Below are positions 3,616 to 24,627 of a DNA stretch of 64,000 nt, piece after piece (within the stretch, counting starts at the first letter, position 1; every line of letters starts with the position of its first letter). A model generated the notes under the pieces. The model worked only from the letters and a program-made list of their open reading frames with translations, had not been told where the DNA came from and searched no databases. The translations under genes and the position numbers were made by a program. The DNA is taken from positions 1 through 64,000 of the IMG/VR virus record IMGVR_UViG_3300036790_000419; one strand, 5' to 3'. Source of the stretch: a virus.

Positions 3616-3647
3616 CAGGGGCAGGCACCGAGCGAAGGGCGGGCACA

Positions 3648-4400: not shown

Positions 4401-4481
4401 GCATGAAGATCGAGGTCATCGAGGTCGGCGAGGCCGTACTGCGCATTCCGGGCACGGTGCACAGTGGAGAGGGGCTCTGAC

Positions 4482-4955
4482 ATGAACTGGTACCCGATCG
4501 GCGCGAGCCGCGGGGAGCACGGCTGGGGCGACGAGACCACTTACCTGGTGACCGTCCTTGAGCACGAGGTCCGGCTGTCCCGGTTCCGCTCGCCGGGCAC
4601 TAGCCCGCTGGACATGGCCGTCGAAGCAGCCCGCAACGTCATCGTCTTCCCGCTCGGCCGCGGCCCTGGCCGTCCTGGCGGGGAGCCCGAGCTGGCCGCG
4701 CTGGCGGAGTCGGCCAAGACGTACGCCGAGCGGTTCGAGGCCGGCGAGTCCCTGGAGGGCTACCCGGCCTGGCAGCGTGAGCAGCCGAAGGCCCGGCGGC
4801 ACTTTCATGCGCCGTTCGAAGTTGAGCGGGAGTGCTTTAAGTCGCATGACCTGTCAGCCCTGGACTACCTGGCCGACCTGCGCGCCGCAGACGGCCACGT
4901 GCCGGACTACAACCGGGCGGAGGCCGACCGCCGGCTGCGCGAGATGCTGGGCTAG
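4482..4955 (+). CDS. hypothetical protein
   Basis: ORF with GAGAGGGG RBS. Confidence 0.7.
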   Translation: MNWYPIGASRGEHGWGDETTYLVTVLEHEVRLSRFRSPGTSPLDMAVEAARNVIVFPLGRGPGRPGGEPELAALAESAKTYAERFEAGESLEGYPAWQREQPKARRHFHAPFEVERECFKSHDLSALDYLADLRAADGHVPDYNRAEADRRLREMLG

Positions 4956-5218
4956 TGAACGTCTGGCGCGACGTCACCGAGTCGGTCCTGCGCGCCGGGT
5001 GCGGCAGCGTGCTGGGCCCGGACACCCGCCGCCGTACCCGCTGGTGGGACCTGCGCCTGGAGTGCGGGCACCACGTGGAGCGGCACGTCCGCTACCGCAA
5101 GCTGGACTCCCCGGCACGGCAGGGCACCCGCCGGGCTGCGGCCGACGTGCTGCCCCCGGTGGCCCGGGTGGCCTGCCGGGAGTGCGCGCGGCTGGCGCTG
5201 AAAGAAATGTTCTCTTGA
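4955..5218 (+). CDS. hypothetical small Zn-binding protein
   Basis: ECGH...CREC; coupled start. Confidence 0.6.
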   Translation: MNVWRDVTESVLRAGCGSVLGPDTRRRTRWWDLRLECGHHVERHVRYRKLDSPARQGTRRAAADVLPPVARVACRECARLALKEMFS

Positions 5219-5280
5219 CTCGGGTCAAGTCATCCGGTAGCCTGGTGCCGTAAGCACTTCCGAGCAAGGGCAGGCACCCT

Positions 5281-5742
5281 ATGACTGAGCACCTGAACCA
5301 GTACCACGTGGCCGTCCTGACCGCGCTGCGTAACGCCGCTGCCCTGCGGCGCGAGCCCAAGATCCTGACCCCCGACGGCCGCGAGCAGTGGTTCTCGCTG
5401 CGCGAGCTGTCCGAGGAGGGCCAGCTGGCCGGCCTGCCCGTGGGGGTGCTGGAGCCGGCGGCGCGGACGCTGCGCAAGCGCGGGCTTATCGCCGGCCGCA
5501 CGTTGTCGGGCATTCTCCGGTACGCGGTTGACGAGCCGGGTTCCATGGTGCTGGCAGCGCTGGAAGAGCGCGCCGGCATCACCGGGCTGGTGGCCGCCGA
5601 CCTGGCGGTCGCACAGGCCCGGATGGACGCCCGGCTGGCGAGGCGGCGCGAGGCCGCCGCCCTGGCGAAGCGGTCCGGGCTCGCGCTCCGCCACCCGTCG
5701 TACGCCGAGATCGCCGCGTTTTCCGAGGAGGTTTACCAGTGA
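5281..5742 (+). CDS. hypothetical protein, possible winged helix
   Basis: After promoter and leader; ARTLRKRGLI...RY pattern. Confidence 0.7.
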   Translation: MTEHLNQYHVAVLTALRNAAALRREPKILTPDGREQWFSLRELSEEGQLAGLPVGVLEPAARTLRKRGLIAGRTLSGILRYAVDEPGSMVLAALEERAGITGLVAADLAVAQARMDARLARRREAAALAKRSGLALRHPSYAEIAAFSEEVYQ

Positions 5743-5939
5743 GCATCGTTCGCATTCAGGTGACGGTCGAGCCGCGAGGCCGCGCCGGCACGCTCACCGA
5801 GGTCGTGGAAGTCGACGCGGCTGAGCTTGAGGGCCTGACCGGCGAGGAGCGCGAGGCCCTCCTCGCCAGGATCGCCGAGGAAACCGCCAACGAGCTGGCC
5901 CCGTGGGGCTGGTACGAGCTGCCTGAGGAGGCGAGGTAG
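5739..5939 (+). CDS. hypothetical protein
   Basis: GGAGG RBS, coupled. Confidence 0.65.
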   Translation: MSIVRIQVTVEPRGRAGTLTEVVEVDAAELEGLTGEEREALLARIAEETANELAPWGWYELPEEAR

Positions 5940-6653
5940 GTGCCTAAGAAGTACGAGGACTGCACCACCGACGGGGACGGCGACGAGCGTCACCCGGCAT
6001 TCGGGGCGGTCAGCCTCCACCGGATCAGCGCGAGCCCTGGCGCGGTGCTCTTCCAGTCGGACGTCCGGCACCCGGAGTACATGCGGATTGAAGTTCACGA
6101 GGCCGCCCGCAAGCGCGACCTGCACCGTGACTGGGTGCACCCGGAGCGGGTGGTCTGCGAGATCAGCCTGTCGATGGCGCAGTTCGCCTCGTTCGTGGCC
6201 AGCACCGGCCAGGGCGGCGGCGTGCCGTGCACCATCGAGTGGGCCGGAAGCGGCTCGCACGAGCCCGGCGACCGGCCCGGACTCCTCCCGGCTCCCCGGC
6301 TCTCACTCAGCCATGACGAGGTGCGGGCGGCAGCAGACGAGGCATTCGAGAAGATTAAGGAGGCCGAGGCCGAGCTTCAGGAGGCCATGGCCGCCAAACC
6401 GCCGGTTCCGGCTGCGGAGCGCAAGCGCCTGATGGCGGTCCTGCATTTCGCGATCGAGCACGCCGCTCCCAACGTGGCGTACGCGGCCAAGAAGCTGGAT
6501 GAGCACGCTGAGGCCGTGGTGGAGAAGTCCCGCGCCGACATCGAGACCATGGTCACCAGGATGGCTGAGCGGGCCGGCATCGAGTCCGGCGCGACTATCC
6601 GCGCCATCACGGGAGTTCCCGATGAGCGGGGGGACGCCGGCGATGCTGTCTGA
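5940..6653 (+). CDS. hypothetical protein
   Basis: 237 aa ORF abutting the previous gene. Confidence 0.75.
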   Translation: MPKKYEDCTTDGDGDERHPAFGAVSLHRISASPGAVLFQSDVRHPEYMRIEVHEAARKRDLHRDWVHPERVVCEISLSMAQFASFVASTGQGGGVPCTIEWAGSGSHEPGDRPGLLPAPRLSLSHDEVRAAADEAFEKIKEAEAELQEAMAAKPPVPAAERKRLMAVLHFAIEHAAPNVAYAAKKLDEHAEAVVEKSRADIETMVTRMAERAGIESGATIRAITGVPDERGDAGDAV

Positions 6654-6993
6654 CGACCTGTCCGGCATTGAGCGCGGCGACACGGTGCTGCTCGTTACGA
6701 GCTGCTCGCAGCCGCGTGCCGTGACCGTGGAGGCGGCCGGCGCCCGGTGGATCACCGCGGGGAGCCACCGGTTCAGCCGCGTCAGCGGGCGCCGCGCCGA
6801 CGGCGGGACCGAGCCCCGGATCGAGACCGTGGCCGGGCACGCCGAGCGTGCTGAGCAGCGCGCCCTGGCGGAGCGGATGCACCCCTGGGGCTGGATCCCG
6901 GCGGCCGGCCAGCACCAGATGACCACCGGCCAGATGCGCCGCGCGGCCACCTTGCTGGCCGAGTTCGAGGCTGAGGAGGCAGGCTGTGAGTAG
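6643..6993 (+). CDS. hypothetical protein
   Basis: Overlapping operonic ORF. Confidence 0.6.
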   Translation: MLSDDLSGIERGDTVLLVTSCSQPRAVTVEAAGARWITAGSHRFSRVSGRRADGGTEPRIETVAGHAERAEQRALAERMHPWGWIPAAGQHQMTTGQMRRAATLLAEFEAEEAGCE

Positions 6994-7495
6994 GCTGCGG
7001 AGAATTTACCGGCTGGACGTCATCTACCCCGAGGGCTCGCACGCGCCCGGCTGGCGCCCGGCCTGCTGGGGCGACCCGGCGCTCCTGGCGACGCTCGACA
7101 AGAAGCAGCGCCGCGAGCTGGCGAAGGCCGAGTTCTACTGGCCGCGCGAGCGGGTGTTCCTGTCCAGTTCAAGCGCCTACGCGCGCAGGAACCTGCTGGA
7201 GTGGTACGGGGCTGACGCTGAGGTGCTGGCCTCCGACCCGGTGACCTGGCCGAACCTGGACGACTGGGAGGCGGGCGACGGCTGGGAGCACGGGAGCACG
7301 GCTTTCCGCTGGGCCGCCGACCTGGAAGACGCCCTTGAGCACGCCCGCGAGATCCTGGGTGAGCCGGAGATGCCCGAGCTGGCGGACCTGGTGCGCGGCC
7401 TCCCCGGTGCCGTGCTGGACGAGGCGGCTAAGTTTAGCGCCGCCGCCCGCCAGCTCGCCGCTTACCGGACGTTGCCGGCTGAGGGGGCACGATGA
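6986..7495 (+). CDS. hypothetical protein
   Basis: GAGGAGG RBS, operonic. Confidence 0.7.
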   Translation: MSRLRRIYRLDVIYPEGSHAPGWRPACWGDPALLATLDKKQRRELAKAEFYWPRERVFLSSSSAYARRNLLEWYGADAEVLASDPVTWPNLDDWEAGDGWEHGSTAFRWAADLEDALEHAREILGEPEMPELADLVRGLPGAVLDEAAKFSAAARQLAAYRTLPAEGAR

Positions 7496-7726
7496 GGCGG
7501 TACCCGTGGGTCATCCTGTGCGCCCTGGGCGTCGTGCTCGGGCCGCTCCTGATGCTGTACGCCGGGCTTGCCGGCGCGTGGGGCGCGCTCTGGCCGGCCG
7601 CCGTGGCCACTGTCGCCGGGGTCACCGGCTGCCTGACGTTCCGGTCGGCCCGTCGGCGCTGATGCTCTTGACTAGAGTCAAGACACTCCGTAGACTGGAG
7701 CCACAGGCAGCCGAGAGGGGCAGGCA

Positions 7727-7963
7727 ATGGCAGGCACGACGTTCGGGTTCATAGCACGGAAGCTGGCCGAGAAGGTAGCAGCTGGCACCCTCACGCAGGA
7801 AGACGCCGAGGCCGCGCTGCGCCTGGAGCCGGGCGAGCGGCTGTGCGCGAACGGCGTCATTTCCGGCTCCGCAGCGCACCCGGACATCCCGCGCCACGGC
7901 GCGGACGAGACCGACAACGATCACCCGGCCTGCGACTTCCCGAACCTACGCGGGCAGGACTGA
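7727..7963 (+). CDS. hypothetical protein
   Basis: After promoter 7667 and leader. Confidence 0.7.
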   Translation: MAGTTFGFIARKLAEKVAAGTLTQEDAEAALRLEPGERLCANGVISGSAAHPDIPRHGADETDNDHPACDFPNLRGQD

Positions 7964-7979
7964 GGAAGGGCAGGCACAC

Positions 7980-8417
7980 ATGATCGAAGTCAAGTTCATC
8001 ACCCATGACGAGGAAACAGACGGCATCGCCGTCGAGCACGACGGGCGCGAGGTGTGGGCGGACGGCCCGCACGACTCGTGGGACCAGTACTTCCGGCGCT
8101 ACATGCCCAGGGGCGTGCCGGTGCTGCTGAGCCAGGACACGCGGCCGAGCGAGCGCGAGGGCCAGGCCCGCGACGACCCCCGGCCGTACCCGCAGGGTGA
8201 GGGCACGGACGCCCGGCTGGCCCGCTGGCTGGTCGACAACACCAGCGCCTACGGCATCCGCTTCGCCGAGGAGGACGAAGAGGGACGGCCGACTGAGGTC
8301 GTCGGGCCGGTCATCATGGACGGCAGCGCGCTGATGGAGCTATTGACCAACGTGGCCGAGCGGATGTACTGGCACGGGGTGGACGACGTGCGTGCTACCC
8401 ACGGCCTCCAGCGGTGA
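7980..8417 (+). CDS. hypothetical protein
   Basis: Leader motif without its own promoter. Confidence 0.75.
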   Translation: MIEVKFITHDEETDGIAVEHDGREVWADGPHDSWDQYFRRYMPRGVPVLLSQDTRPSEREGQARDDPRPYPQGEGTDARLARWLVDNTSAYGIRFAEEDEEGRPTEVVGPVIMDGSALMELLTNVAERMYWHGVDDVRATHGLQR

Positions 8418-8773
8418 GCGGCGCGCTGCCGGAGGCGGCCCTGCGGGTTTACCTGGCCGTCTGGCTGGTGCTCCGTGCCCTGCTGCCCTGGATGCTCGCG
8501 ACGGCTCTCGTGACTCGCGTTGTGCTGATCCTGGCACGTGTCCGGTGAGCGGCGAGCTGACGCCGGAAGAGACCCTGGAAGCGGCGGCGGTGCTCGCCGA
8601 CGTGCACCGCTGGGCAGCGCCCGCCTGGCGGTACGTGGCCAGCGGGACCGCGACCCGGGAGACCGTCCTGGCCAACCTGGGTGACATGACTACCCGGCTA
8701 GGGCAGCTGCGCGTCCTGCTGGACAAGGGCGAAACGGCTGACGGGCCGGAGGAACTAGGCGAGGGGAAGGCAC

Positions 8774-9217
8774 ATGGCACGACTTCCGAGTTACAGGTAC
8801 CTCATCCAGCAGGCCGGCGCGCAGGTGATCCTGTTCGAGGAGGGCACCGAGCGCCAGATCGTTAAGTTCGACCCGTCCGACGGCAGCGCCGCCGCGGGCG
8901 CCCTGGACGTCATCCGCGATTCCGAGATGAGCGGCGAGGACAAGTGCTACGCCTGCTTCTGGGCCGGCTACTTCCACGCGTATGCCAACCGGGCTCCCGA
9001 GATGGCACGAGAGGCCTACGTTCGCGAGGCGGACGAGGGCCGGGCCGTGGTGGTGACCTCGCCGCGCGGGCGCGGGCTCGAAATCGTGCGGTTCGACCCG
9101 CGCGACGCCAGCGCGGCGGCCAGGGCGCAGAAGAACATCTACGACTCCGGGCTGAGCCCGGACGAGAAGAACCGGGCCCATTTCTGGTGCGGATTTTTTT
9201 ACGGTCAGGCATCGTGA
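8774..9217 (+). CDS. hypothetical protein made of two tandem homologous domains
   Basis: IVKFDPSD..AAA...DS.MS...K..A.FWAGYF repeated as IVRFDPRD..AAA...DS.LS...K..A.FWCGFF. Confidence 0.75.
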   Translation: MARLPSYRYLIQQAGAQVILFEEGTERQIVKFDPSDGSAAAGALDVIRDSEMSGEDKCYACFWAGYFHAYANRAPEMAREAYVREADEGRAVVVTSPRGRGLEIVRFDPRDASAAARAQKNIYDSGLSPDEKNRAHFWCGFFYGQAS

Positions 9218-9846
9218 TGCCCGTGCGCTGCGAGGAGGGCGGCAGCCTGTGGCAGCTCGTGGAGGCGGCCAAGGACGACCAGCCGGCTGCCAGTGACGAA
9301 GCCCCGCCCGCAGCCGGCATCCTAGCCGTGGCACAGTACGGGCCGCTGTACGACGCTGTATGGGCGAAGTGCCAGGAGCTGGTGCCGGGCAATACCGGCA
9401 GCAGCATCCAGTCCGGCCTGTACCGCGCGGACGGGCGCGGCTGCTCGGGCATCGTGGAGCGCTTCAACAACGACGGCACCGGCACCGTCTGGCACGTGGG
9501 AGCCTACGCCCACATCGACGGGCGCCGGCCGCGGATCTCGGTTCAGGTGCACGGCCCGTGGACCGACAACAGTGACGACCTGTGGGAGAAGAACATCGCC
9601 GACCTGGCTAAGGGCCGGGATAACGTGGTCATCGAGAACCACTGCTGGTTCACGGTCGGCGACGAGGGCGCGAGTGGCATGCGCGGGTTCGGCGGGCACA
9701 GGTTCGAGTTCCGGCCGCTGGACGGCGGGCTCCTGCTCGTGTCCACCAACATGTGGTTCGGCGGGGCCATCCCGCCCGTGTTCCGTGACCGCATCCCCGA
9801 CACGCACAAGATGCTCAAGGGTTTCTACCCCGGGCCGGTGGAGTGA
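9217..9846 (+). CDS. hypothetical protein
   Basis: TGATG coupling. Confidence 0.7.
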   Translation: MPVRCEEGGSLWQLVEAAKDDQPAASDEAPPAAGILAVAQYGPLYDAVWAKCQELVPGNTGSSIQSGLYRADGRGCSGIVERFNNDGTGTVWHVGAYAHIDGRRPRISVQVHGPWTDNSDDLWEKNIADLAKGRDNVVIENHCWFTVGDEGASGMRGFGGHRFEFRPLDGGLLLVSTNMWFGGAIPPVFRDRIPDTHKMLKGFYPGPVE

Positions 9847-10253
9847 TGAGCGAGCCGTGCGCCCGCGGGTGCGGCCGGGCCGCGTCCTGGTGGTACGGCG
9901 GCCCGGAGCGGGACCAGCCGGAGGCCTGGGTGTGCACGTCCTGCTACGAGGCCGAGGAGTTCGCCCCGGGCCACGTCCGCGACGGTGACCGCCGCCATTT
10001 CATGGCCACCGGCTGCCGCGACTGCTGCGCCCGCACGGTGGCCGGCATGACCCTGGAGCAGGTGGAGCACTGGTACCACGACGGCTACGTCGGGCAGGAC
10101 GTGTACGAGGCCTACTGCCACGCGTGGGCGACCAGTGCGACTCACAGCGCCGCCTGGGACTCATGGCTGAAGCCGCCGGCTGTCCCCGAGGTCGTGCGCC
10201 TGGTGGCTATCATCCGCGAGGTGAACGCGCGGCGGGCGGCAGTCCGGCATTGA
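9843..10253 (+). CDS. hypothetical Cys-containing protein
   Basis: Coupled ORF. Confidence 0.65.
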   Translation: MMSEPCARGCGRAASWWYGGPERDQPEAWVCTSCYEAEEFAPGHVRDGDRRHFMATGCRDCCARTVAGMTLEQVEHWYHDGYVGQDVYEAYCHAWATSATHSAAWDSWLKPPAVPEVVRLVAIIREVNARRAAVRH

Positions 10254-10319
10254 CTTGACCCGAGTCAAGTCAATGCCTATGCTCGCGGGTGAGGTAACCA
10301 ACCGAAGGGCAGGCACCTG

Positions 10320-10847
10320 ATGGGCCCCTACTGCAAGTACTGCGACCAGCGCTGCTTCCTGCCGCGCGTTATCCCCGGCGGCCCGGACAAGGGCAAGCGG
10401 GTCCTCCTGGCCACGTGCGAGGCGGGCATGGCGGCCGACCTGGAGAGGGACGGCTACACGCACGAGACGGCGCTCAACCCGGTCACCCGGACCTCAGCCG
10501 CGGAGGCGCTGGCCGCTGAGGTCCGCGGCGAGGCTGCCCCGGCTGGCATCCAGCGGATCACCAGGCGCGATGACCTGGTGGCCCTGAAGAACGTGCTCGG
10601 GATGCACCCTGACTGGCACGAGCCGGACGGGCGGGACGTTACCGCGCGGGTGTTCGGCAGTGACTTCGACAATGCCGGGAACTGGGGTACTGCCGAAGCG
10701 CTGCAGCGCAAGGCCGAACGTGCCAGGGGCATTCCGCGTTCCGGCTCCCTGGAGCTGGGGGTGACCATCTACCGGGACGGCAAGCCGGTGGCCGAGGTCA
10801 ACCTGGCCACGCTGCTGGCGTGGGCGACCGGCTACGAGGACGACTGA
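10320..10847 (+). CDS. hypothetical protein
   Basis: After promoter 10254 and leader; CKYC motif. Confidence 0.75.
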   Translation: MGPYCKYCDQRCFLPRVIPGGPDKGKRVLLATCEAGMAADLERDGYTHETALNPVTRTSAAEALAAEVRGEAAPAGIQRITRRDDLVALKNVLGMHPDWHEPDGRDVTARVFGSDFDNAGNWGTAEALQRKAERARGIPRSGSLELGVTIYRDGKPVAEVNLATLLAWATGYEDD

Positions 10848-10850
10848 GCT

Positions 10851-11249
10851 ATGCCGCTTATGGCGTACACGCCTGCCGAGCTTGCGGAGCACCTGGACAA
10901 CTTGCGGTACTGCCCGCACTCCACTGGCTCGTTGTCCATGCTGGACGAGGCCACGCTGGCTTATGGCGGCAGGTACCCGGAAGTTGACGGCCCGCAACGG
11001 GCGTTCGCCGCTGCCCGCTACGCGCACATGCAGTCGTACCGGACTGAGACCTGCCGTTACTCCGACGAGGCGTGGCAGCGGGCCGTAGATGCCGCTCGCG
11101 CACTCGCAAAGGTACTGCGCCCGTTGGGCGATTCTCGGATAGAGCGGTGCAAGCGTCAGGCCGGCTGGGGGGTGTGCAACCTTCCTCTCGGCGATGATGG
11201 CGTTTGCTGTTACCAGCCCCATGTTGAGCAGGGCCACGGCTGCCACTAA
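10851..11249 (+). CDS. hypothetical protein
   Basis: Operonic ORF. Confidence 0.65.
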   Translation: MPLMAYTPAELAEHLDNLRYCPHSTGSLSMLDEATLAYGGRYPEVDGPQRAFAAARYAHMQSYRTETCRYSDEAWQRAVDAARALAKVLRPLGDSRIERCKRQAGWGVCNLPLGDDGVCCYQPHVEQGHGCH

Positions 11250-11306
11250 CCTCCGGAGAGCCCCTGTCCGGCGATGACCGGACAGGGGCTCTCGCGCGTC
11301 GCTACG

Positions 11307-11978
11307 ATGCCGCTCATGCCTGAGTTCGCCGACCTGTACGCCGAGCACCTGCCTGCGGCCCGCAGGGCGGCCCTGGCCCTGGTGCCCGCCGACGCGGCCG
11401 ACGACATCGCGCACGAGGCGTTCGCCCGCGTGCTGGCCCGCCAGGCAGCCGGGGGAGGCCCTGACGGGGCGTTCCGCCCCTACCTGCTGGCAGCGGTGCG
11501 CAACCTGGCGCGGGACTGGCTGGCCGAGCGCAGGCGCACCGTGCCCGCTCCCCTGGACCCGCGCGCGGTGCGCGTGCCCGGTGCCGGCGAGCTGGTGACC
11601 GCGGCCGAGGAGCGGCGGATGACCCGCCGGGCGTTCGGCTCGCTGCCGGCCCGCTGGCGCGCGGTGCTGTGGCAGACCGAGGTGGAGGGGCGCACGCCCG
11701 CCGAGCTGGGGCAGGCCTCCGGCATGAGCCCCAACGCGGTGGCCGCGCTCGCGCTGCGGGCCCGGCTCGGGCTGGCGCTGGCGTGGCAGCGCGAGCGCGG
11801 CACCCAGGAGCGGCTGACCGGCCCCGCTCCGGCCCTGGTCAGGCTGGCGGAGAGAAAATACCAGAGAGCACTTGACACGAGTCAAGCTGATCGTTTATCT
11901 TTAAGAGGTCAGGCAGGGAGAAGCGGGTTCGAGTCCCGCCCCGTCCCGAATGGGGCGGGATGGTCTAGGCCAGGTTAA
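11307..11978 (+). CDS. ECF-type RNA polymerase sigma factor
   Basis: Region 2 (ADDIAHEAFARV..FRPYLLAAVRNLARD) and region 4 (LPARWRAVLWQTEVEGRTPAELG..GMSPNAVAALALRAR); the C-terminal tail overlaps the downstream promoter and RNA. Confidence 0.85.
   Translation: MPLMPEFADLYAEHLPAARRAALALVPADAADDIAHEAFARVLARQAAGGGPDGAFRPYLLAAVRNLARDWLAERRRTVPAPLDPRAVRVPGAGELVTAAEERRMTRRAFGSLPARWRAVLWQTEVEGRTPAELGQASGMSPNAVAALALRARLGLALAWQRERGTQERLTGPAPALVRLAERKYQRALDTSQADRLSLRGQAGRSGFESRPVPNGAGWSRPG
11871..11901 (+). promoter_or_regulatory. promoter of the candidate ncRNA
   Basis: Palindrome with perfect TTGACA, 18 bp spacer, TATCTT; predicted +1 near G11907; no leader motif or start codon follows. Confidence 0.75.
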
Positions 11979-12430
11979 GGCGCCCTGCCGGGCACAACCG
12001 GCTGACCGGTCGCATGCTCACCCCGGAGACGCGGGGCGAGTTGCTGGCGCAGGCTGGCTAAGACTTCCCGGGCCGCCGCGCGGCGGCACCTGGCGAACGC
12101 CTGAGTCGCGGGGCGCGAAGCTCCCGGACAACACGGCTCCGGACCAGGGAAAGCCGCACGGCAGCCCGGGATCCCAAAACTCAACAGAGCTGCTGGCCAG
12201 TGCGCCTCAATCAGGAGCCGATCTCCGGCCCTGGCCAGTACAGACGAGGGGTCTCGTTCGAGGCGAGGCGGTATCCAGTCCGCCTTTACCTGCCACCCGG
12301 CGCAAGCCGGGCCGTGGCCGACACGTGACGGCAGGGCTTGGGGTTCGTGACCCGACAGTGAACTCGGTTCCCCCTCGCGAACGCCCTAGCGGATGTCTCG
12401 GTTGCCTGCCCTGCCCGCTAGGGCGTTCGC
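11907..12430 (+). ncRNA. candidate ~525-nt structured ncRNA with a 5' permuted tRNA-like (YrlA-like) module and a 3' anti-leader hairpin
   Basis: Bounded by a promoter and a 16-bp hairpin; no credible ORF; many nested stems; T-arm GCGGG-TTCGAGT-CCCGC at 11923-11939. Confidence 0.7.
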
Positions 12431-12496
12431 ATTGTCTTGACTCAAGTAAAGCTGACAGGTAAGCTGTAGCCAGGTAATCGAGTGAAGGGCGGGCAC

Positions 12497-12907
12497 ATGA
12501 GCGAGGAAATCGAGATCACCGCCGGCGACGGCGACGAACTGGCCGAGGAAGTTTGCAACGCCGTCGAGGCGGCGAGCAGCCAGGACAAGATCACGTGGGT
12601 GACCGACCACGGTCAGCGCGTCGCGGCCATCGTGCCGGTCGACGTGGCCGAGGCGCACGAGCAGATGATCGAGAAGGTGCTCAGCACCCCCGTGGGGAAG
12701 CCGAAGGTGCGGTTCCCGAATGTCACGGTGTGCCTGAGCGTGAACCACAGCGGCAGCACCGGGGCCATCATGGCGACCGTGGCCAAGGCGATGAAGGAAG
12801 CCGGCTGCGAGGAGCGCGACATCCGCACCTTCCGCGAGGGCGTGTTCGGCCGCGCGAGCTACGACGAGGTGCTGCAGTTCGTCATGCGCACGGTGAACGT
12901 CGAGTAG
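12497..12907 (+). CDS. Phd/YefM-like N-terminal domain fused to a small phage domain
   Basis: ITWVTDHGQRVAAIVPV resembles the Phd/YefM beta-hairpin; after promoter 12436 and leader. Confidence 0.6.
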   Translation: MSEEIEITAGDGDELAEEVCNAVEAASSQDKITWVTDHGQRVAAIVPVDVAEAHEQMIEKVLSTPVGKPKVRFPNVTVCLSVNHSGSTGAIMATVAKAMKEAGCEERDIRTFREGVFGRASYDEVLQFVMRTVNVE

Positions 12908-12918
12908 GGGGTGGGCAC

Positions 12919-13176
12919 GTGAGCGTACGACTGATCGTTATTCAGGGCCATGAGACGGTGGCCCGTGTCGAGGACTACGACGGGCCGGTCCCCCGGGTAG
13001 GGGACTACCTGTTCCACCCGGACCTGGACGACGACGGCACCAGTGACATGACGTTGCAGGGCACTGGCATAGCCGGGTGCGTGAAGACCGTCACCTGGGG
13101 GCTCTACACGCGGCCTAGCAACGGAGAGGCGCACTTCGTGAAGCGCGCTGTTCCGGTTGTTGAGGTAGAAATATGA
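12919..13176 (+). CDS. hypothetical protein
   Basis: Operonic; VPRVGD motif. Confidence 0.6.
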   Translation: MSVRLIVIQGHETVARVEDYDGPVPRVGDYLFHPDLDDDGTSDMTLQGTGIAGCVKTVTWGLYTRPSNGEAHFVKRAVPVVEVEI

Positions 13177-13577
13177 GCGCCGCTTCCGTGCGCCTGGTCG
13201 TGAACGCGCGCCCGCCGACAGGTGACCCGGTGACCGACGCCGACCACGCCACCACGATGGCTGACCTCCGTGCCGCGCTGTGCCTGGCCACGGGCGTCCC
13301 GCAGGAGTACATCTCCTCACTCGGCTTCGACATCTCTGACAAGGGCTACGCGAACGTGAAGGCCAGCTGGGTGCGCTACATCGGGCAGTGGGGGTGGTCG
13401 GCCCAGTTCGACGGCCCGCACCTGGCCCGCGCGTTCGACCTGTGGCGGCACGACCGGCCGGACCTCGCCGTGGACGGCGACTGGTTCGCCCCCGGGGTGT
13501 ACGCCCACGCTGACCGTTACCCCGGGGGGTGCGGCCGGCAGACGTGCGACCTGTGCCACGCGGTGCCGGCGTCATGA
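13173..13577 (+). CDS. hypothetical protein
   Basis: ATGA coupling. Confidence 0.7.
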   Translation: MSAASVRLVVNARPPTGDPVTDADHATTMADLRAALCLATGVPQEYISSLGFDISDKGYANVKASWVRYIGQWGWSAQFDGPHLARAFDLWRHDRPDLAVDGDWFAPGVYAHADRYPGGCGRQTCDLCHAVPAS

Positions 13578-13737
13578 GCGGGGCACCGCAGGTTAAGCGC
13601 CGGGCGCGCTGCCTGTACTGCGGCACGATGAAGCCGGTCACCAGGGCGGGCAAGATCCGCAAGCACTGGGTGACCGGCGGGCCGACTACAACGCATCCCG
13701 GTGAGCGCGTGGTGTGCGGCGGATCGGGGCGCGACGC

Positions 13738-14127
13738 ATGAGCGGCACGTGGGCCGTGACCCGGCCGGGCGAGCGCGGGATGACCGCCGGGTACGCCGAG
13801 GACGAGGCGCGCAGGTACGCCGCCGAGTTGCCCGGCCTGCTGGAAGACCTCTCCTTGTCGTTCACCGCTACCGACCTGCTGCCTGAGCTTGAGCGGCGGT
13901 TCCCGGTCGGTGGCACGGTGTGGCTCGGGAAGCCGGTGTACTGGCGCAGGGGCCAGCGGGGCACGGTGGCCGCGGGCGTGCCGGACCTTTGCGTCAAGTG
14001 GCAGCCGGAGCCCGGGCCGGTGCCCTGGTTCATCGGCACCGGCGGCGCGTACGTGCACGTGGTGTTGGACGACGGCACCGCGTCCTGGTGGCCGTCGCGG
14101 TGGCTGGATACGCGGGAAGCACCGTGA
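13738..14127 (+). CDS. hypothetical protein
   Basis: Coupled ORF. Confidence 0.6.
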   Translation: MSGTWAVTRPGERGMTAGYAEDEARRYAAELPGLLEDLSLSFTATDLLPELERRFPVGGTVWLGKPVYWRRGQRGTVAAGVPDLCVKWQPEPGPVPWFIGTGGAYVHVVLDDGTASWWPSRWLDTREAP

Positions 14128-14275
14128 CCCGCGTTAACTGGCTGGGCGTCGCCGTCTGGGCTTCCGGGCTGACCTGCCAGCTGTGGGCCGGCCATAAGCC
14201 GGAAGCGGTCCTGGGGACGGCGACACTCCTACTGTGCCTCATCGGCCTGGTGCTGGTCTTCTGGAGGCCGCGCCG

Positions 14276-14698
14276 GTGAGCGGGGACTGCGACCGGGCGA
14301 ACCAGATGGAAGCCGGGGCCGCGAGGGCATGCGCCCCGCAAGGCTGGGCGGGCACGCTGGCCTGCTGCCTGGCTCACCACCGGGACATGTTCTGGCAGCC
14401 GATCTGGGGCTACTGGGTGCACAGCGCGGGGGTGCGCCCGTGCGAGTCGATGAAAGGCGAGCCCGACCCCGAGTTCCTGCCCTGCCGCTACTGCGGCGCG
14501 CGCCTGGCGGTCGACGGCGGCGGGAAGGTGTGGTCGCTGGTGCCGGAGGCGAGCCGGAACCCGTACTGGGCCCGCGACACGGTGTACGTGTGGCAGCCGC
14601 CGCGGGTGCGCGACACCTGGCACGATGACGCGTGGACCGACAAGTGCCCGGTTTCCCCCACTTTCCTTCATGAAGTGACCCCGCTGCGCTTCACGTGA
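14276..14698 (+). CDS. hypothetical Cys/Trp-rich protein
   Basis: GTGA coupling. Confidence 0.55.
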   Translation: MSGDCDRANQMEAGAARACAPQGWAGTLACCLAHHRDMFWQPIWGYWVHSAGVRPCESMKGEPDPEFLPCRYCGARLAVDGGGKVWSLVPEASRNPYWARDTVYVWQPPRVRDTWHDDAWTDKCPVSPTFLHEVTPLRFT

Positions 14699-14757
14699 GT
14701 TAAGCAGCCTGTTAAGCTAACCCGCCAGTAACAAACCCCGGTGAGGGGAGAGCGTCA

Positions 14758-15009
14758 ATGAACGCCATTGCCACGGAGCCGGCGGACGCCGTGCGCGAGG
14801 CCGCCGGGGAGTTCCCTTGCCTGCGCGCGGGGGGCTCCCGGATCTACGCCGGGCTGAGCGCTGACGGCGTGCTCGTGGTCCGCGTCTACCCGGAGGGCGA
14901 CACGCCGGTCGCTGTTTTCGTGGACGAGGCCCTGGTGGCCGGCAGCGAGATGGACTGGCGCCCGGTCGGCCGCCACCGGGTACCGCCTGACCCGGCCGAC
15001 GGGGAGTAA
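14758..15009 (+). CDS. hypothetical protein
   Basis: After degenerate promoter 14689; GGGGAG RBS. Confidence 0.65.
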   Translation: MNAIATEPADAVREAAGEFPCLRAGGSRIYAGLSADGVLVVRVYPEGDTPVAVFVDEALVAGSEMDWRPVGRHRVPPDPADGE

Positions 15010-15217
15010 GTGCCCCCTTCCCCGGCCGGGGTTGTGTGATACTGGGGGAGGCCAGGCTGAGGCGCTGCCCCGAGCGCCCGCCGTGGCTTCCTCTGCGAAG
15101 GGCCCTGGGGTTTCCCCCGTGCTCCGGGGCCCTTCGCAATTCCTCTTGACACGAGTCAAGACTGTGCATAGCCTGAGACCTTACCGCTTAACCGCAGTCA
15201 AGCGAAAGGTCAGGCAC

Positions 15218-15385
15218 ATGCCAAAGCCAGCCACTCCCGTTAACAAGCCGGGCCAGGACCGCCCCGGGCAGGGCGCCGGGCGCGGGGGCCGCCCCGGTTC
15301 CTCCGACCGCGGCGGCTCAGGCCAGGGCCGCAGCCCCGGCGGGCACCCGCCGGTTCCCGCGCGCCCGGCGCCCCGCACCCGGTAA
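15218..15385 (+). CDS. small Gly/Pro/Arg-rich disordered protein
   Basis: After promoter 15145 and a leader variant. Confidence 0.6.
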   Translation: MPKPATPVNKPGQDRPGQGAGRGGRPGSSDRGGSGQGRSPGGHPPVPARPAPRTR

Positions 15386-15591
15386 TGAGCACGCGGCCCC
15401 CGGGCACGCCCACGGCCCCGGACCGGTTCACGCCGGGCCGGGAGCCGTGCGGCTGCCTGGCGTGCCCGGAGTGCGGCTGCGCCTGCGCGCACCGCTCCGG
15501 GCTGTGCGCGTGCTGCCGCGCGGGCCTGCACGACGGCTCGTGCGGCCCGGCCCCGTCCTACCTCGTGGCACTGCCCGGCGGCCTCCCGTGA
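15385..15591 (+). CDS. small Cys-rich protein
   Basis: CGCLACPECGCACAH..CACC..H..C; TAATG coupling. Confidence 0.55.
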   Translation: MSTRPPGTPTAPDRFTPGREPCGCLACPECGCACAHRSGLCACCRAGLHDGSCGPAPSYLVALPGGLP

Positions 15592-15856
15592 CAAGCGAGG
15601 AGGTGGCTGCCGTGCTCGGTGCCGGCCGCGGCCGGGCGGTCGCCTACCTGGCCGCGCTGCGGCGTTCGGACCTGGAGGCGGTCGCCCGCTCGCGCGGCGT
15701 GCCCTTCACCCGGCAGACGTCATCAGGCGACATCGCGCGCCGCGTCGTGAGCCGTGCCGCTGAGCAGGCCCGGCGGGGGAAGCGCTCGCGTTAGCTTGAC
15801 TTGAGTTAAGACATCGGGTACCATGGAAGTACAAGCTCCGACGAAGGGCAGGCACG

Positions 15857-16294
15857 ATGGCTCAGGCCAGGACCAGTTACGACATGACGGTCTACCCGAT
15901 GACGGTGGCCGTGCGCAGCGCGTCCAACGGGGCGAGGGCGCACCTGGTGCAGCTCCCCTACTGCGACTGCGAGGACTTCACCAACCGCCGCGGCCGGCTC
16001 ACCACCGAGGGCACCGTCACGGTGTGCAAGCACGTCCGCGAGGCACTTGAGCGCGTCGGCGGCTGGCACCGCGAGGACCCGAAGGACGAGGTCTACGAGG
16101 ACCTGACGTACTCCGAGGCCTCCGAGCTGCTGACTAGCATCCTCGCCGTCGATGCCACGATGGTGCTGGGCGCACTGGCCGGCGTTCATACCGGCCAGCC
16201 GGTGGAGCTGGCGCGCGCGGCGGGCGAGGCTGTTCGCCTGTCGGTCAAGCCGGGCGAGCGGGGACGGCGCTACACCGTTACCATCCCCGCGTAG
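15857..16294 (+). CDS. SWIM-type zinc finger protein (paralog A)
   Basis: CDCEDF...CKH. Confidence 0.75.
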   Translation: MAQARTSYDMTVYPMTVAVRSASNGARAHLVQLPYCDCEDFTNRRGRLTTEGTVTVCKHVREALERVGGWHREDPKDEVYEDLTYSEASELLTSILAVDATMVLGALAGVHTGQPVELARAAGEAVRLSVKPGERGRRYTVTIPA

Positions 16295-16423
16295 CCCGGA
16301 CCGGGGCAGGCAAGGCCCGCGAGTGGCACGGCGCCCGCTCGCGGGCCTTGCCTATGCTTGACTCGGGTCAAGCCATGCGCTACGATGGGACTGTAAGCAG
16401 CCAAGCGAAGGGCAGGCACCTCG

Positions 16424-16639
16424 ATGGTCCAGCAAATCACCCGCGAGCAGTTCGCCCGGCTCACCAACCCGGTGTGCTCGGCTTGCGACCAGCCGGTCGC
16501 GTTCGACGGCATCGCCGTCCGGCACGTCGATGCAGTCGCTGGCACCGTGTGCCGCCTGCTCGCCGCCGGCGAGGGCCGCACGCTCCACGCGGACGACACC
16601 CCGGAGACCCGCGCGGTGCGCGCCGAGCTGGCCGGGTAG
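16424..16639 (+). CDS. hypothetical protein
   Basis: Own promoter, leader and terminator. Confidence 0.7.
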   Translation: MVQQITREQFARLTNPVCSACDQPVAFDGIAVRHVDAVAGTVCRLLAAGEGRTLHADDTPETRAVRAELAG

Positions 16640-16647
16640 CCTCCGCG

Positions 16648-16685
16648 AGGCCCGCACCTGGAAACGGGTGCGGGCCTTGTTTTGT
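16648..16685 (+). terminator. intrinsic terminator
   Basis: AGGCCCGCACC/GGTGCGGGCCT followed by TGTTTTGT, abutting the next palindrome. Confidence 0.75.
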
Positions 16686-16748
16686 CTTGACTCAAGTCAA
16701 GATATCAGGTACCATTGGAGGTACAAGCTCCTACGAAGGGCAGGCACA

Positions 16749-17219
16749 ATGGCAGCTCCCGCCAAGAACTACGACATGACCGTTCACCCGACCGCGGGCC
16801 TGGTGCGCAGCCAGAGTGACGGTGCCAGGGCGCACCAGGTCACTCTTCCGTCCTGTGACTGCGCGGACTACATCAACCGCAAGGGCGACCTGGTGCAGGT
16901 CGACGGCCTTACGGCTATCACCCTGTGCAAGCACATTGTTGAGTTCCTGGAGCGAGTCGGCGGCTGGAACCGGCCTGCCGGCCCGCCGTCGCCTGAGGTC
17001 TACGAGAACCTGTCCCGACAGCGGGCACGCACGCTCATGGCTGAGGCTCTCCTGGCGGATTCGATGATCACTCACCTGCTTGACATCGTGATCGTGGACG
17101 GTAACCCGGTGACCTGCCCGGGTGCCCCTAAGCACCCGGAGGTGAAGCTGGCCGCCGTGCGCTTCGCGGCAGGCTTGCGCTACACCGTGACCATCACCCG
17201 CAGGGCTAGGGCCGTATAG
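16749..17219 (+). CDS. SWIM-type zinc finger protein (paralog B)
   Basis: CDCADY...CKH; aligns with 15857..16294. Confidence 0.75.
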   Translation: MAAPAKNYDMTVHPTAGLVRSQSDGARAHQVTLPSCDCADYINRKGDLVQVDGLTAITLCKHIVEFLERVGGWNRPAGPPSPEVYENLSRQRARTLMAEALLADSMITHLLDIVIVDGNPVTCPGAPKHPEVKLAAVRFAAGLRYTVTITRRARAV

Positions 17220-17288
17220 GGCTTGACTCAAGTCAAGCCCATGACGTAAGCTGTACTCACAAGCACCGAGCGAAGGGCAGGCATCCCG

Positions 17289-17528
17289 ATGCGAGTAACA
17301 CCGGACATGACAACCGAGGGCGGAGCGCCGCTCGTCAAGCTAGCTGACGTGCTCGCCGAGGATGAGGTGGGCGTCAAGGTAGACGTCTCCGAGTTCGGCG
17401 ACCAGGTGCGGCTCACGGTCGACTCGACCGCCACCACCGGCAAGCACGCCTACCTGACGGCGGACGACGCTGACGCCCTGGCCGACCTGCTGCAGCGTAA
17501 GGCACAGGAAATCCGGAGCGCGCCGTGA
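17289..17528 (+). CDS. hypothetical protein
   Basis: After promoter and leader. Confidence 0.7.
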   Translation: MRVTPDMTTEGGAPLVKLADVLAEDEVGVKVDVSEFGDQVRLTVDSTATTGKHAYLTADDADALADLLQRKAQEIRSAP

Positions 17529-18388
17529 GCACTCAGCAGAACGAGGCCGGGGCCTACGTGCCCCGGCTGGGCGACCGGGTGACGGTCCGTCGCTACATCG
17601 CGCCGACTACCGGCAAGCGAGAGCTGAGTTCCGTGCGCACCGGGGAAATCACCAACCTGCACCCGGAGCACGGTGAGTACAGGATCTGGCTGGACGGAAG
17701 TCCTGAGTGGATCTTCACCGGCGACCAGTTCCTGGGCGCTGGCACAGACGGGAGCGGCCCGGCATCGCTGGTGATCGAGGTAACGCCGGACACCGGAGAA
17801 CGTGAACCGGACGCCGGGCTTGCCCGGCTCCGCCTCCGCCAGGCGCAGGAGCGCATCGCCACCCGCTTCCCGCGCGTAGCGCGAGACAGCCAGCTGGCCT
17901 CCGCTCTTGAGAGCCTGGGCGACGCACTTGGCGCCGGCCCGGAGGCGAGCGACCCTGAGCACGCGAGCGCGCGTGAGGGCGACGTTTCCCGCCAGCGGCT
18001 CAGCCCGGACCTGTGGGTGGTGGTCGACGCCTCGCTGAATACCGTGCTGGAGGTAACCACCCCGTTTGACCGGATCGTGCGACGTGTCCTGGTCAGCCGC
18101 AGCGCGGTGCGGGAGGCGCTGGAGACGGCGTACGCGCTGACGGTCAAGGCTGAGGGCGAGATCGAGGAGAGCCGCCGGCGCGGCCGGGACGAGAGGCGCC
18201 GCGCGCAGGGCAGGCTCACGCAGCCCGAGGCGGTGGAGTGGCTCACCGGCAAGGGCCGGAGCCGGCGCATGGCGGTATGGATTGCCGGCCAGTTGCGTGA
18301 CGGGTACTACGTGCTCGACGCGTTCGGCATGACCTACGACGGCACCTGCTGGGTGGTGCCGGTTATCACCGAACAGCCTGCGCGGTGA
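17525..18388 (+). CDS. hypothetical protein
   Basis: 287 aa coupled ORF. Confidence 0.75.
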   Translation: MSTQQNEAGAYVPRLGDRVTVRRYIAPTTGKRELSSVRTGEITNLHPEHGEYRIWLDGSPEWIFTGDQFLGAGTDGSGPASLVIEVTPDTGEREPDAGLARLRLRQAQERIATRFPRVARDSQLASALESLGDALGAGPEASDPEHASAREGDVSRQRLSPDLWVVVDASLNTVLEVTTPFDRIVRRVLVSRSAVREALETAYALTVKAEGEIEESRRRGRDERRRAQGRLTQPEAVEWLTGKGRSRRMAVWIAGQLRDGYYVLDAFGMTYDGTCWVVPVITEQPAR

Positions 18389-18409
18389 TAACCGCGCGGC
18401 GTAGTAAGG

Positions 18410-18440
18410 AAGGGACGGCGGGGCAACCGCCGTCCCTTTT
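18410..18440 (+). terminator. intrinsic terminator
   Basis: AAGGGACGGCGG/CCGCCGTCCCTT stem followed by T residues. Confidence 0.7.
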
Positions 18441-19025
18441 ACCTGCGGGGGGGTAATCCGGGTGGTTGAGGGCGAGGAGAACGTGCTGTACGCGCGGCTG
18501 CTGAGGGAGGCGGCAGGCGCGAGCGCGGCTGACTGGGTGATGGGCGAGGCTGACGAGCGCAGCGCCATCCACCAGCGCGGCCTGTGCGTCCTGGTGGAGG
18601 CGGCCGGCTGGTGCACGGCCAGGTGGCTGCGGCTGGGCGCGTGCATTAAGGTGCAGTCGGACATACTGCTGAGCGGGGCTACCGCGCTCGGGGTCAGCAC
18701 CGAGTGGGAGGGGTGGCCGTGAGCCCGCGGGGCGGAGACACGAAGGCGATAATCCTGCCCGGCGTCTGCTGCGCGCTGTGCGGCGGCCCGGAGGGCCCCG
18801 GGCTGAACGTGCCGGTGTTCACCCCCGACGGCCGGCCGGCGTTCCCGCGGCTGTGCCAGGACTGCCTGGGGATCGTGCTGAAGGTCACGCTCTCGCTGCT
18901 CGGGCACGCCGGCGGCAAGGTCGCGGCCGTCGCGGTGAGCGTGCCCTTTGACAAGCCTGCTACTTGACTCTAGTCAAGACGATGAAGTAGACTGCCTGCA
19001 GGCAACCGAGAAGGGCAGGCACATC

Positions 19026-20120
19026 ATGGCACAGGCACTGACCACAGGCCCGCCGGTCAAGTACTCCGACGGCTGGCTCAGGCACGACATCCCCGGCACC
19101 CCGTTCTTTGTCAACGAGACCCCGAAGGGGTCGTCATTCCATGTGCTGGAGGCAGGCGCGGCAGCGTGGGGCGGTGCCCACGCGCACGGGAAGCGCGGCT
19201 CACTTCGCGCGGCGCTCAAGCTCGCTGAGGGCCTGGTGCCGAGCACCCCGGCTGACATCATGGCCCGGGTCAAGGAGACCACCCCTTATGACCATGAGAC
19301 GTTCGACCGCATGGCCTACCTGGCTGAGCCGGGACGGCGCTTGTGGGTCCTCCCGGTCTACGGCGACGATGGCTACATCGGGCTAGGCGAGGCAGCAACC
19401 GCGGCCGGCTTGCACGCTAGTGGCATCGAGATGATGTTCGGTTCCCCGTCTAGTGTCTGGTGCGTGGCGTTCACCACCGACAGCGGCCGGGAGAGCCAGC
19501 TTCACCCCATCGCGCTCAGCACCGTGGAGGAGGCGCGCGAGAAGTGGTGGATTCTCAGCCATGACGGTCGCAACCTGGTCAGCGGCGGGCACTCCGACCG
19601 CGCGAGGATGGAGCGCCTCGCGCTCGACTACCCCGGCAGCCAGGTTTACCAGGGCTGCATGTTCATCCGCGAGGACGGGAGCGTGTTCACGACGCTGGTG
19701 TCCTTCGCTGACCCGTACCTGGCTGAGCTGACCGCGCGGCGCAAGGCTGACCGTGCCGCCATGGCCCGCCGGGTAGTCGACCTGGCCGGCGAGTACAAGC
19801 TGGCAGCATGGCACAGGCCGGAGCTGCCGGGGACCAAGCGGACCGACGTCGACCTGGAGTGCCCGCACGGGCTGAAGGTGACCGTCAGGTTCGAGGCCAG
19901 CGGCACCCGCGCCCCGGATACCTACCTGCTGAGCTGGCACGGGGTGGAAGAGGGCGTGCGGCTGCACCCGGGCATGTTCAACCATGTCAACCCGTGCCAC
20001 GGGTGCAAGGCCACCGACGTGGCGCACGGGTTCGCTCAGCTGCTGCGCATCCTGCGGGAGCGGTTCGCGGTCATTCGCGACGACTCCGCGTTCATCCGCG
20101 ACCCGGAGAGCGCCCGATGA
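19026..20120 (+). CDS. hypothetical multidomain protein
   Basis: After promoter 18963 and the full leader. Confidence 0.8.
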   Translation: MAQALTTGPPVKYSDGWLRHDIPGTPFFVNETPKGSSFHVLEAGAAAWGGAHAHGKRGSLRAALKLAEGLVPSTPADIMARVKETTPYDHETFDRMAYLAEPGRRLWVLPVYGDDGYIGLGEAATAAGLHASGIEMMFGSPSSVWCVAFTTDSGRESQLHPIALSTVEEAREKWWILSHDGRNLVSGGHSDRARMERLALDYPGSQVYQGCMFIREDGSVFTTLVSFADPYLAELTARRKADRAAMARRVVDLAGEYKLAAWHRPELPGTKRTDVDLECPHGLKVTVRFEASGTRAPDTYLLSWHGVEEGVRLHPGMFNHVNPCHGCKATDVAHGFAQLLRILRERFAVIRDDSAFIRDPESAR

Positions 20121-20172
20121 CGGATGACCCGGGCGCGCGGCGTGCTCTCGCTAAGCTCGACATGGGACGATC

Positions 20173-20445: not shown

Positions 20446-20544
20446 GGAGGCTGAGCGCGGTCAGCACTGACGCTTGACTCAAGTCAAGTCATGCCCTAGA
20501 CTTGCCCTTGTAAGCAACCCAACTCCACAGGGCAGGCACACACC

Positions 20545-21925: not shown

Positions 21926-21947
21926 CGTCTGACCTGTACCGCTGAGC

Positions 21948-24624: not shown

Positions 24625-24627
24625 GCT

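Follow-up and report, generated by a model that had tools for sequence, protein, structure and literature searches.

A conserved hairpin loop antisense to the shared early-gene leader in six related phages: a candidate RNA partner for leaders of the start-associated-sequence type

[quoted passage not shown] Papers published in 2024–2025 still state that the role of SAS is unknown (PMC11373665; PMC12699233), the authors left their partner open as “either RNA or protein” (PMC3203893; PMC11373665), and the 2025 survey of SAS makes no mention of a hairpin or an antisense element. The Cluster K literature also records that K1 phages carry a single SAS in the opposite orientation, unlinked to a gene start. 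Here we analyze the first 64 kb (64,000 nucleotides, hereafter the window) of the virus record IMGVR_UViG_3300036790_000419, a large soil phage (148.9 kb; estimated to be 98% complete; ~70% GC), in which ~25 small early genes share a leader resembling SAS, and a hairpin in a non-coding region presents a 22-nt loop complementary to this leader.

As judged from sequence, the leaders fit the SAS/ESAS definition in position, orientation, location in the early region and association with an inverted-repeat promoter, that is, in all respects except the sequence itself. In both systems, a short asymmetric motif is located a few nucleotides ahead of the start codons of early, non-structural genes (~13–19 genes in the case of SAS), in one orientation, and extends beyond the part that can pair with 16S rRNA; a SigA-like or sigma-70-type promoter with an inverted repeat lies ahead of many copies, and one copy in the opposite orientation (in Cluster K, that of the K1 phages) resides in a hairpin loop within non-coding DNA. 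By contrast, the SAS sequence, GGGATAGGAGCCC, bears no relationship to GGCAGGCA, the core of the leader considered here, and the phages themselves are unrelated (60 kb versus 149 kb). Furthermore, unlike in Cluster K, almost every small gene of the present genome has its own promoter and terminator. Nucleotide searches against the phage collection, performed in near mode with 10 kb and in distant mode with the RNA region, returned no matches. Given that the motif differs and that no phage record matches at the nucleotide level, the resemblance to SAS is analogous rather than homologous.

Pairing between C-rich hairpin loops and G-rich ribosome-binding regions is also known from host RNAs of bacteria without Hfq, such as those of the RNAIII type in Staphylococcus aureus. 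The 6C small RNA (sRNA) of Mycobacterium and Streptomyces, which are high-GC Gram-positive bacteria, binds several mRNAs through its C-rich loops without a chaperone (PMC6486639). The pairing predicted here is likewise between a C-rich hairpin loop and G-rich ribosome-binding regions, but 6C and RNAIII are host RNAs of ~60–500 nt with targets that have only short G-runs in common, whereas here a phage RNA faces a nearly identical 10–14-nt leader on ~25 of the phage's own genes. A phage-encoded counterpart is the c4 antisense RNA of phages P1 and P7, which is reportedly ~77 nt long. Its loops are complementary to the ribosome-binding region of a phage mRNA, the translation of which is blocked (PMC12197685). 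However, c4 acts in immunity on a single operon (icd/ant) and is processed from the same transcript, whereas the RNA considered here is long and structured and would have many dispersed targets. In phage T4, the endoribonuclease RegB and the translational repressor RegA bring about a global post-transcriptional shut-off of early genes via translation-initiation regions (PMC3014915); these are proteins recognizing GGAG or AU-rich sites, whereas the recognition proposed here is between two RNAs. The statement in an earlier note on this DNA that no system with such a layout has been described therefore needs qualifying, since SAS/ESAS leaders, sRNAs with C-rich loops and the c4 RNA of P1/P7 each share one aspect of it. 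What is distinctive is that the antisense targets form a purpose-built regulon of SAS-type leaders, for which no partner is described in the literature searched.

The leader-bearing genes are organized as cassettes, each consisting, in order, of a sigma-70-type promoter, the leader, a start codon, a small gene and, often, a GC-rich terminator hairpin which, where present, ends a few bases ahead of the next promoter. The cassette promoter has the form TTGACT-17-TAnnnT, with the −35 box embedded in the dyad CTTGAC-N4-GTCAAG, and is found at ~29 sites in 1–37 kb. The leader follows the pattern (A)GGCAACCGAG..GA-AGGGCAGGCAC, with GGCAGGCA placed 1–5 nt ahead of ATG. This core begins 20–28 nt past the −10 box, which corresponds to a 5′ untranslated region (UTR) of ~25–30 nt if the usual distance between the −10 box and the transcription start is assumed. 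The leaders indeed lack a canonical AGGAGG, as the earlier note had pointed out, yet a Shine–Dalgarno (SD)-like part, GAAGGG (GAGAGG in two relatives), lies directly 5′ of the core, and the spacer before the start codon is filled by the invariant GGCAGGCAC. The window contains 42 copies of the element AGGGCAGGCA with at most one mismatch, a number reached by none of 100 shuffles, the expectation being 8.5; the + strand carries nearly all of them, and none lies outside 3.6–35.4 kb of the 149-kb genome. Over the first 37 kb, the 8-mer core is present in 31 sense versus 4 antisense copies, and 24 leaders combine the promoter signature, the core and a start codon, so that the ~30 genes previously assigned to the shared leader were a slightly generous count.

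One of the four antisense cores is found in the loop of the hairpin in question, which is located within the ~520-nt gap that separates a phage sigma factor gene from the cassette gene starting with the ATG at 12497. The perfect 16-bp stem (12377–12392, GCGAACGCCCTAGCGG, paired with 12415–12430, CCGCTAGGGCGTTCGC) encloses the 22-nt loop ATGTCTCGGTTGCCTGCCCTGC (12393–12414), and the reverse complement of the latter, GCAGGGCAGGCAACCGAGACAT, contains both AGGGCAGGCA and a second leader element, GCAGGCAACCGAGA. Perfect matches to GCAGGCAACCGAGA span 14 nt at 18998, 13 nt at 22502 and 32239, 11 nt at 32764 and 10–11 nt at 30247/8; in addition, CAGGTAATCGAG at 12471–12482, when aligned by hand, pairs with the loop over 12 bp, two of which are G-U. 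All these matches and the hairpin itself had been reported in the earlier note and were reproduced here. Comparison with shuffled controls, suggested in the same note, confirmed that the complementarity is beyond chance. Loop–leader duplexes have a mean energy of approximately −26 kcal/mol, as opposed to −17 kcal/mol for shuffled loops, none of 200 shuffles being as good, and the values for related phages are similar. A rough estimate corrected for accessibility yields a mean of −15 kcal/mol, with 23 of the 24 leaders reaching −10 kcal/mol or better, compared with 4% of random windows drawn from the rest of the genome. Two further antisense core copies overlap each other at 31588–31599, and the remaining copies, for which no hairpin context is apparent, look like chance occurrences inside genes. 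We also considered a transcript from the minus strand, the loop of which would display the sense motif, but rejected it, as all genes here are on the + strand and the scan revealed no minus-strand promoter, with CCTAGC being the hexamer found where a −10 box would be expected relative to the palindromic −35 box.

Five relatives of this phage (denoted G000) were available for comparison. Four of these (G001–G004) are IMG/VR phages of 125–152 kb found via the sigma protein, and the fifth (M1) is a phage from a metagenome contig (locus L052; L053 has the same sequence, and L054 is truncated). Their sigma proteins are 62–86% identical to that of G000. A profile of the sigma protein recovered no further viral contigs; in metagenomes, it retrieved M1 and ~75 additional loci, nearly all with identities of at most 57% and without cassette promoters or leaders, which are probably mostly bacterial genes for sigma factors of the extracytoplasmic function (ECF) type. 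A scan of viral contigs with the loop pattern returned three of the known relatives and ~25 chance matches lacking hairpin context. All relatives retain GGCAGGCA-N1-8-ATG in dozens of genes and in one orientation, and in most of the ~95 leaders of the six phages the core ends 1–5 nt before ATG or GTG. The hairpin is kept alongside the leaders in every case. The six phages share a common order of elements, namely, the sigma gene, a TTGACA promoter, two conserved blocks (A and B), CGAGGGG, CCCCTC, the hairpin with TGCCTGCC in its loop, and the next promoter; CGAGGGG is exact in five of them and was not found in G001. The non-coding regions vary in length from 386 to 971 nt, and one insert of G002 is a small leader-tagged open reading frame (ORF). 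On sequence evidence, these regions constitute a homologous family of non-coding RNAs (ncRNAs) with variable inserts. In each genome, exactly one antisense copy of the core lies in a hairpin loop.

The stem and the loop of this hairpin have evolved in markedly different ways. The stems of the six phages are 13–16 bp long and differ from one another, and the loops measure 20–23 nt. When the stems are anchored on the loop-closing pair, 12 of 16 positions have changed on both sides, with every pair being either standard or G-U, although register shifts may inflate this count of compensatory changes. In the most conservative comparison, that between G000 and M1, which are in the same register, there are three double compensatory changes and no broken pairs. 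The loop core GGT(A)TGCCTGCC, in contrast, is invariant in all six phages, the inserted A being confined to G004. Alignment of the hairpins with MAFFT followed by RNAalifold misaligned the stems and was not used; it was replaced by the structure-anchored comparison and a covariance model. Trained on four of the hairpins, the model found the remaining two, in G004 (E = 6e-7) and G003 (E = 4e-5), and in 208 kb it detected no second large-loop copy, just ordinary small-loop terminators. A compensated helix around a frozen large loop is the signature of an RNA that is structured and has a loop acting through its sequence; neither a terminator alone nor a neutral remnant would produce it. The loop is under purifying selection, as expected of a base-pairing seed in an RNA.

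The hairpin may terminate transcription as well. The tail following the G000 stem has T at five of eight bases, and in G002, G003 and G004 four or five T residues directly follow the stem. The stem fits an intrinsic terminator, but a loop of 22 nt is unusual for one, and a scan with the terminator consensus found none. In G000, the apical loops of the other hairpins that directly precede cassette promoters measure 3–10 nt, indicating that termination does not need a loop of 22 nt. It could nevertheless be argued that the element is a terminator only, with the loop being a functionless remnant of an inverted leader left by cassette recombination. Pieces of leader can indeed enter cassette hairpins, because in the terminator hairpin at 16303–16357, preceding the promoter at 16358, the 5′ arm includes leader-like GGGGCAGGCAAGG in sense orientation, with the complement forming part of the 3′ arm. 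However, a neutral loop of 22 nt should diverge or shrink to the 3–10 nt seen in the other terminators, whereas the loop core is unchanged in six phages with stems that differ at most positions and sigma proteins of 62–86% identity, making this explanation highly improbable.

The region in which the hairpin is embedded has the properties of a non-coding transcript. The segment 11861–12496 is non-coding by GC content at third codon positions (GC3): an overlapping ORF of 170 codons has a GC3 of 0.62, compared with 0.93–0.95 for the flanking genes. The segment 11905–12435 has a predicted folding energy of −295 kcal/mol (z = −5.8 relative to dinucleotide shuffles). The sole sigma-70-like site in 11000–13500 is the TTGACA promoter following the sigma gene. 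Formally, the open frame of the sigma gene continues to 11978, but the coding signal stops near 11860 (GC3 of 0.93 before and 0.67 in the tail), the last 118 nt being devoid of it, and orthologues (L011, L012) stop at the equivalent of approximately residue 190; the promoter can therefore be considered effectively intergenic and pointing into the gap. TTGACA is found at the same place after the sigma gene in all five relatives, with −10-like hexamers read from the sequence. A predicted promoter of its own, a terminal hairpin and the lack of coding capacity are features that fit a trans-acting sRNA.

On these grounds, we propose, with about an even chance of being correct, that the locus encodes an antisense RNA acting in trans on early mRNAs, whose ribosome-binding region it would cover, probably to shut them off. 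The hairpin would form the 3′-terminal stem-loop, probably a terminator, of a phage ncRNA of ~520 nt, transcribed from the promoter directly after the sigma gene. Read-through from the upstream genes, from the Lsr2-like gene to the sigma gene, between which no cassette promoter was found, may contribute as well. The C-rich loop would serve as the antisense seed for the common 5′ leader of ~25 early cassette mRNAs, pairing at one of two sites: the 10-nt AGGGCAGGCA, spanning the SD-like purines and the spacer before the AUG, or AGGCAACCGAGA at the mRNA 5′ end. With the ribosome-binding region masked, translation and perhaps the stability of all early messages would most likely be lowered together, possibly with cleavage following pairing. 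Since the duplex covers the SD-like purines and the spacer, we infer repression rather than activation as the more likely outcome. The position beside the sigma gene, kept in all six phages, further suggests a switch module in which the RNA might damp the early class of genes and the sigma factor activate the one that follows. The interpretation of the earlier note, one RNA pairing with the translation-initiation region of the whole accessory regulon, is partly supported by these analyses, which point to an RNA element under selection with a loop antisense to a phage-wide leader.

Alternatively, the loop could act in cis, either by pairing with leader-like G-rich stretches of its own RNA or by masking the downstream ribosome-binding site in read-through transcripts, such that translation would occur only from transcripts initiated at the downstream gene's own promoter. 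The RNA does contain sense leader-like stretches, GGCAGGG at 11912–11918 and GGCAGGGC at 12330–12337. Moreover, the downstream leader at 12471–12496, ~60 nt away, is complementary to the loop when G-U wobbles are included, with 12 bp in its first half and 10 bp in its second (aligned by hand), and the downstream leader of G003 is, among the matches listed, which include some outside leaders, the only one extending the match to GGCAGGCAA. Yet G004 has not retained the 5′ leader-like stretch, which in G002 is part of a small inserted gene; the downstream gene varies among the six phages, whereas the hairpin stays with the sigma gene and the RNA; and a mask of this kind could do without a match to the consensus shared by all leaders. 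Taken jointly, the two forms of action in cis are unlikely, although we consider them the most serious of the alternatives.

A different possibility is that the motif functions as double-stranded DNA, namely, as a binding site for a phage protein that would form a stoperator-like roadblock after each early promoter, with the hairpin copy being an inverted extra site located by chance between the arms of a terminator. The motif is one-directional relative to transcription and lies at the fairly fixed distance of 20–28 nt from the −10 box, each promoter carries the operator-like dyad CTTGAC-N4-GTCAAG, and asymmetric repeated sites regulating transcription are known in Cluster A phages (cited in PMC3203893). 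On the other hand, a DNA site accounts neither for the tie of the core to the start codon, 1–5 nt away, nor for the single inverted copy kept exactly in the loop in six phages, and the helix around this loop evolves by compensation of the RNA type, including G-U pairs. We therefore regard a DNA site as quite unlikely.

Pairing might also be real but positive in its effect, so that the RNA would protect or activate early messages or bring them to ribosomes via tRNA-like modules. Besides a T-arm-like hairpin, this RNA contains other hairpins that are T-loop-like, and the early-type promoter implies that it is made together with its targets. In the adaptor version of this idea, the tRNA-like or T-loop modules and the anti-leader loop would physically link the ~25 leader-tagged messages with either the ribosome or a phage factor; if true, this would amount to phage-private, RNA-guided translation initiation or mRNA sorting, and SAS-type leaders elsewhere would be tags of the same kind of system. 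However, pairing covers the SD-like purines and the spacer, which would normally block binding of the 30S subunit, and neither reading of the relatives' sequences nor a BLAST comparison revealed the tRNA-like module of G000 in them. We know of no precedent for a positive effect of pairing with such geometry, and the orthogonal anti-SD adaptor envisaged in the earlier note found nothing in its favor beyond the tRNA-like modules of the same RNA. Positive action in general, and an adaptor in particular, must each be deemed very unlikely.

A tRNA-like module is apparent at the 5′ end of the ncRNA (11907–12007), with the hairpin GCGGG-TTCGAGT-CCCGC. A search of the window against Rfam, including YrlA, 6C and transfer-messenger RNA (tmRNA), produced no match at the gathering score, and the hits with E ≤ 10 were at chance level only; the best weak matches were to YrlA (19 bits against a cut-off of 69, stemming from the T-arm-like hairpin) and ncS035 (16 bits). 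ARAGORN found neither tRNA nor tmRNA in the window, and no TROVE/Ro gene was identified in the genome. As for blocks A and B, CCTGG and CCAGG within them may close a conserved domain, to which no Rfam family matches.

An analogy in favor of antisense shut-off comes from Cluster K, where the lone inverted SAS of K1 phages displays the same geometry. In phage Anaya (JF704106, ~59850–59900; L132 34850–34900), the inverted SAS is located in a 385-nt non-coding gap near the right end, where a hairpin with two tiers presents it in a 10-nt loop, CCUCCUAUCC. The same loop is found in Adephagia, Shaobing, Biglebops and Guanica15, with an outer stem that changes by compensation; the inverted-SAS loops of K1 phages measure 10–11 nt, and the gap is conserved in 182 Cluster K records. 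In Adephagia, late transcription reportedly begins between genes 92 and 93 (PMC11373665), and the gap between these genes is the one containing the inverted SAS. The Cluster K arrangement is an independent analogue, the timing of which fits a shut-off of early SAS-tagged messages.

Several observations nevertheless weigh against antisense shut-off. In K6 phages and Ekdilam, the homologous loop is C/U-rich and no longer a perfect complement of the SAS. Krueger has an unchanged SAS, with 17 copies that deviate from the consensus by no more than two mismatches and 13 of these exact, but a different loop; loop and SAS therefore do not covary there. With the K6 loop drifted and the SAS unchanged, the analogous Cluster K system does not strictly maintain perfect pairing. 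Within the six phages studied here, the covariation between loop and leader proposed as a check in the earlier note cannot decide the matter, given that loops and leaders of all six phages have one and the same core, and the flanks offer hints only. In G003, the dominant SD-proximal flank of the leaders is CGAGA rather than CGAAG, and the loop flank UUUCG pairs with both via G-U, extending the duplex to 13 bp. In G004, two leaders have GGCAT where other phages have GGCAA, and the loop has ATGCC instead of TTGCC, with one extra base. The loops of G003 and G004 slightly favor the leaders of their own genome over those of other phages, but the cross-genome energy matrix displays no clean co-evolution. 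The argument that leader variants preserve pairing as wobbles is weak: 8 of 15 single substitutions in the core are G-U compatible, but all eight are A>G and could stem from mutation bias in a GC-rich genome. A predicted mini-helix of 3 bp (GGU/GCC) inside the loop could lower its accessibility. Finally, the promoter of the RNA is of the same early type as those of its supposed targets, so that the timing logic is not obvious, and a single RNA would have to titrate ~25 messages transcribed from consensus promoters.

The locus provides a concrete and testable partner for SAS-type leaders in the form of a single RNA loop that is complementary to them and under selection in six phages, and the occurrence of the same geometry in Cluster K1 opens the question to phages that can be engineered and for which RNA-seq data exist. 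If pairing is real, it would represent a compact translational switch for a whole class of genes, with an RNA in the place where T4 employs RegA and RegB, and would offer a portable leader/anti-leader pair for coordinated control of genes in high-GC bacteria. The coordinates of the relevant features are compiled in Table 1.

Table 1. Coordinates of the hairpin, the predicted RNA, neighboring genes and leaders in the window
Feature	Position	Strand	Basis or remark
Early/accessory region, 24–31 leader copies	3618..35351	+	core ends 1–5 nt ahead of start codon
Phage ECF-type sigma factor gene	11274..11860	+	Pfam Sigma70_r2, r4_2; PHROG RNA polymerase sigma factor
Predicted ncRNA promoter: TTGACA, 18 nt holding GTCAAG, TATCTT	11872..11901	+	10/12 consensus positions
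Predicted ncRNA body	11908..12376	+	fold, no codon signal, conserved blocks
T-arm-like hairpin of tRNA-like module	11923–11939	+	weak YrlA hit, 19 bits
Conserved block A, CTGGCGAACGCNTGAG	12090–12105	+	same order in six phages
Conserved block B, CTACGGACCAG	12137–12147	+	same order in six phages
Helix CGAGGGG (12245) / CCCCTCG (12371)	12245, 12371	+	CCCCTC in six phages, CGAGGGG in five
Hairpin 5′ arm, 16 nt	12377..12392	+	sequence
22-nt loop, antisense to leader; invariant core TGCCTGCC at 12403–12410	12393..12414	+	sequence, six-phage comparison
Hairpin 3′ arm, then moderately U-rich tail 12431–12438, ATTGTCTT	12415..12430	+	sequence
Promoter of next cassette gene: TTGACT, 17 nt, TAAGCT	12437..12465	+	read from sequence
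Leader and start of next gene: CAGGTAATCGAG, then GAAGGGCGGGCAC, then ATG at 12497	12471..12499	+	read from sequence
Best-matching target leader: GCAGGCAACCGAGA, then AGGGCAGGCA, then ATG at 19026	18998..19028	+	net energy with loop estimated at −19.7 kcal/mol

Several additional features of the genome deserve mention. Coding-like frames, as defined by GC3, are essentially all on the + strand in the first 40 kb, and the presence of an Lsr2-like gene and of the ECF-type sigma factor gene points to an actinobacterial host and, hence, to an actinophage. The dyad CTTGAC-N4-GTCAAG lies over the −35 box in every early promoter (e.g., at 16687, 22468 and 25288) as well as in the ncRNA promoter, and likely represents an operator for a dimeric repressor, that is, a transcriptional layer on top of the leader. 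At 31588–31599, TGCCTGCCTGCC is a doubled antisense core located ~45 nt upstream of the cassette promoter at 31640, which could be a second, weaker anti-leader site. The gene directly following the hairpin (12497–12907) encodes a protein with an N-terminus resembling, by eye, antitoxins of the Phd/YefM type and a C-terminus matching phrog_1933; the other relatives lack such a gene at this position, whereas similar genes occupy it in G001 and G004. The promoter–leader sequence TTGACTCAGGTAAAG... is present at both ends of the record, at 16–60 in the window and at 148751–148795 in the genome, which suggests either a terminal repeat or a circularly permuted assembly.

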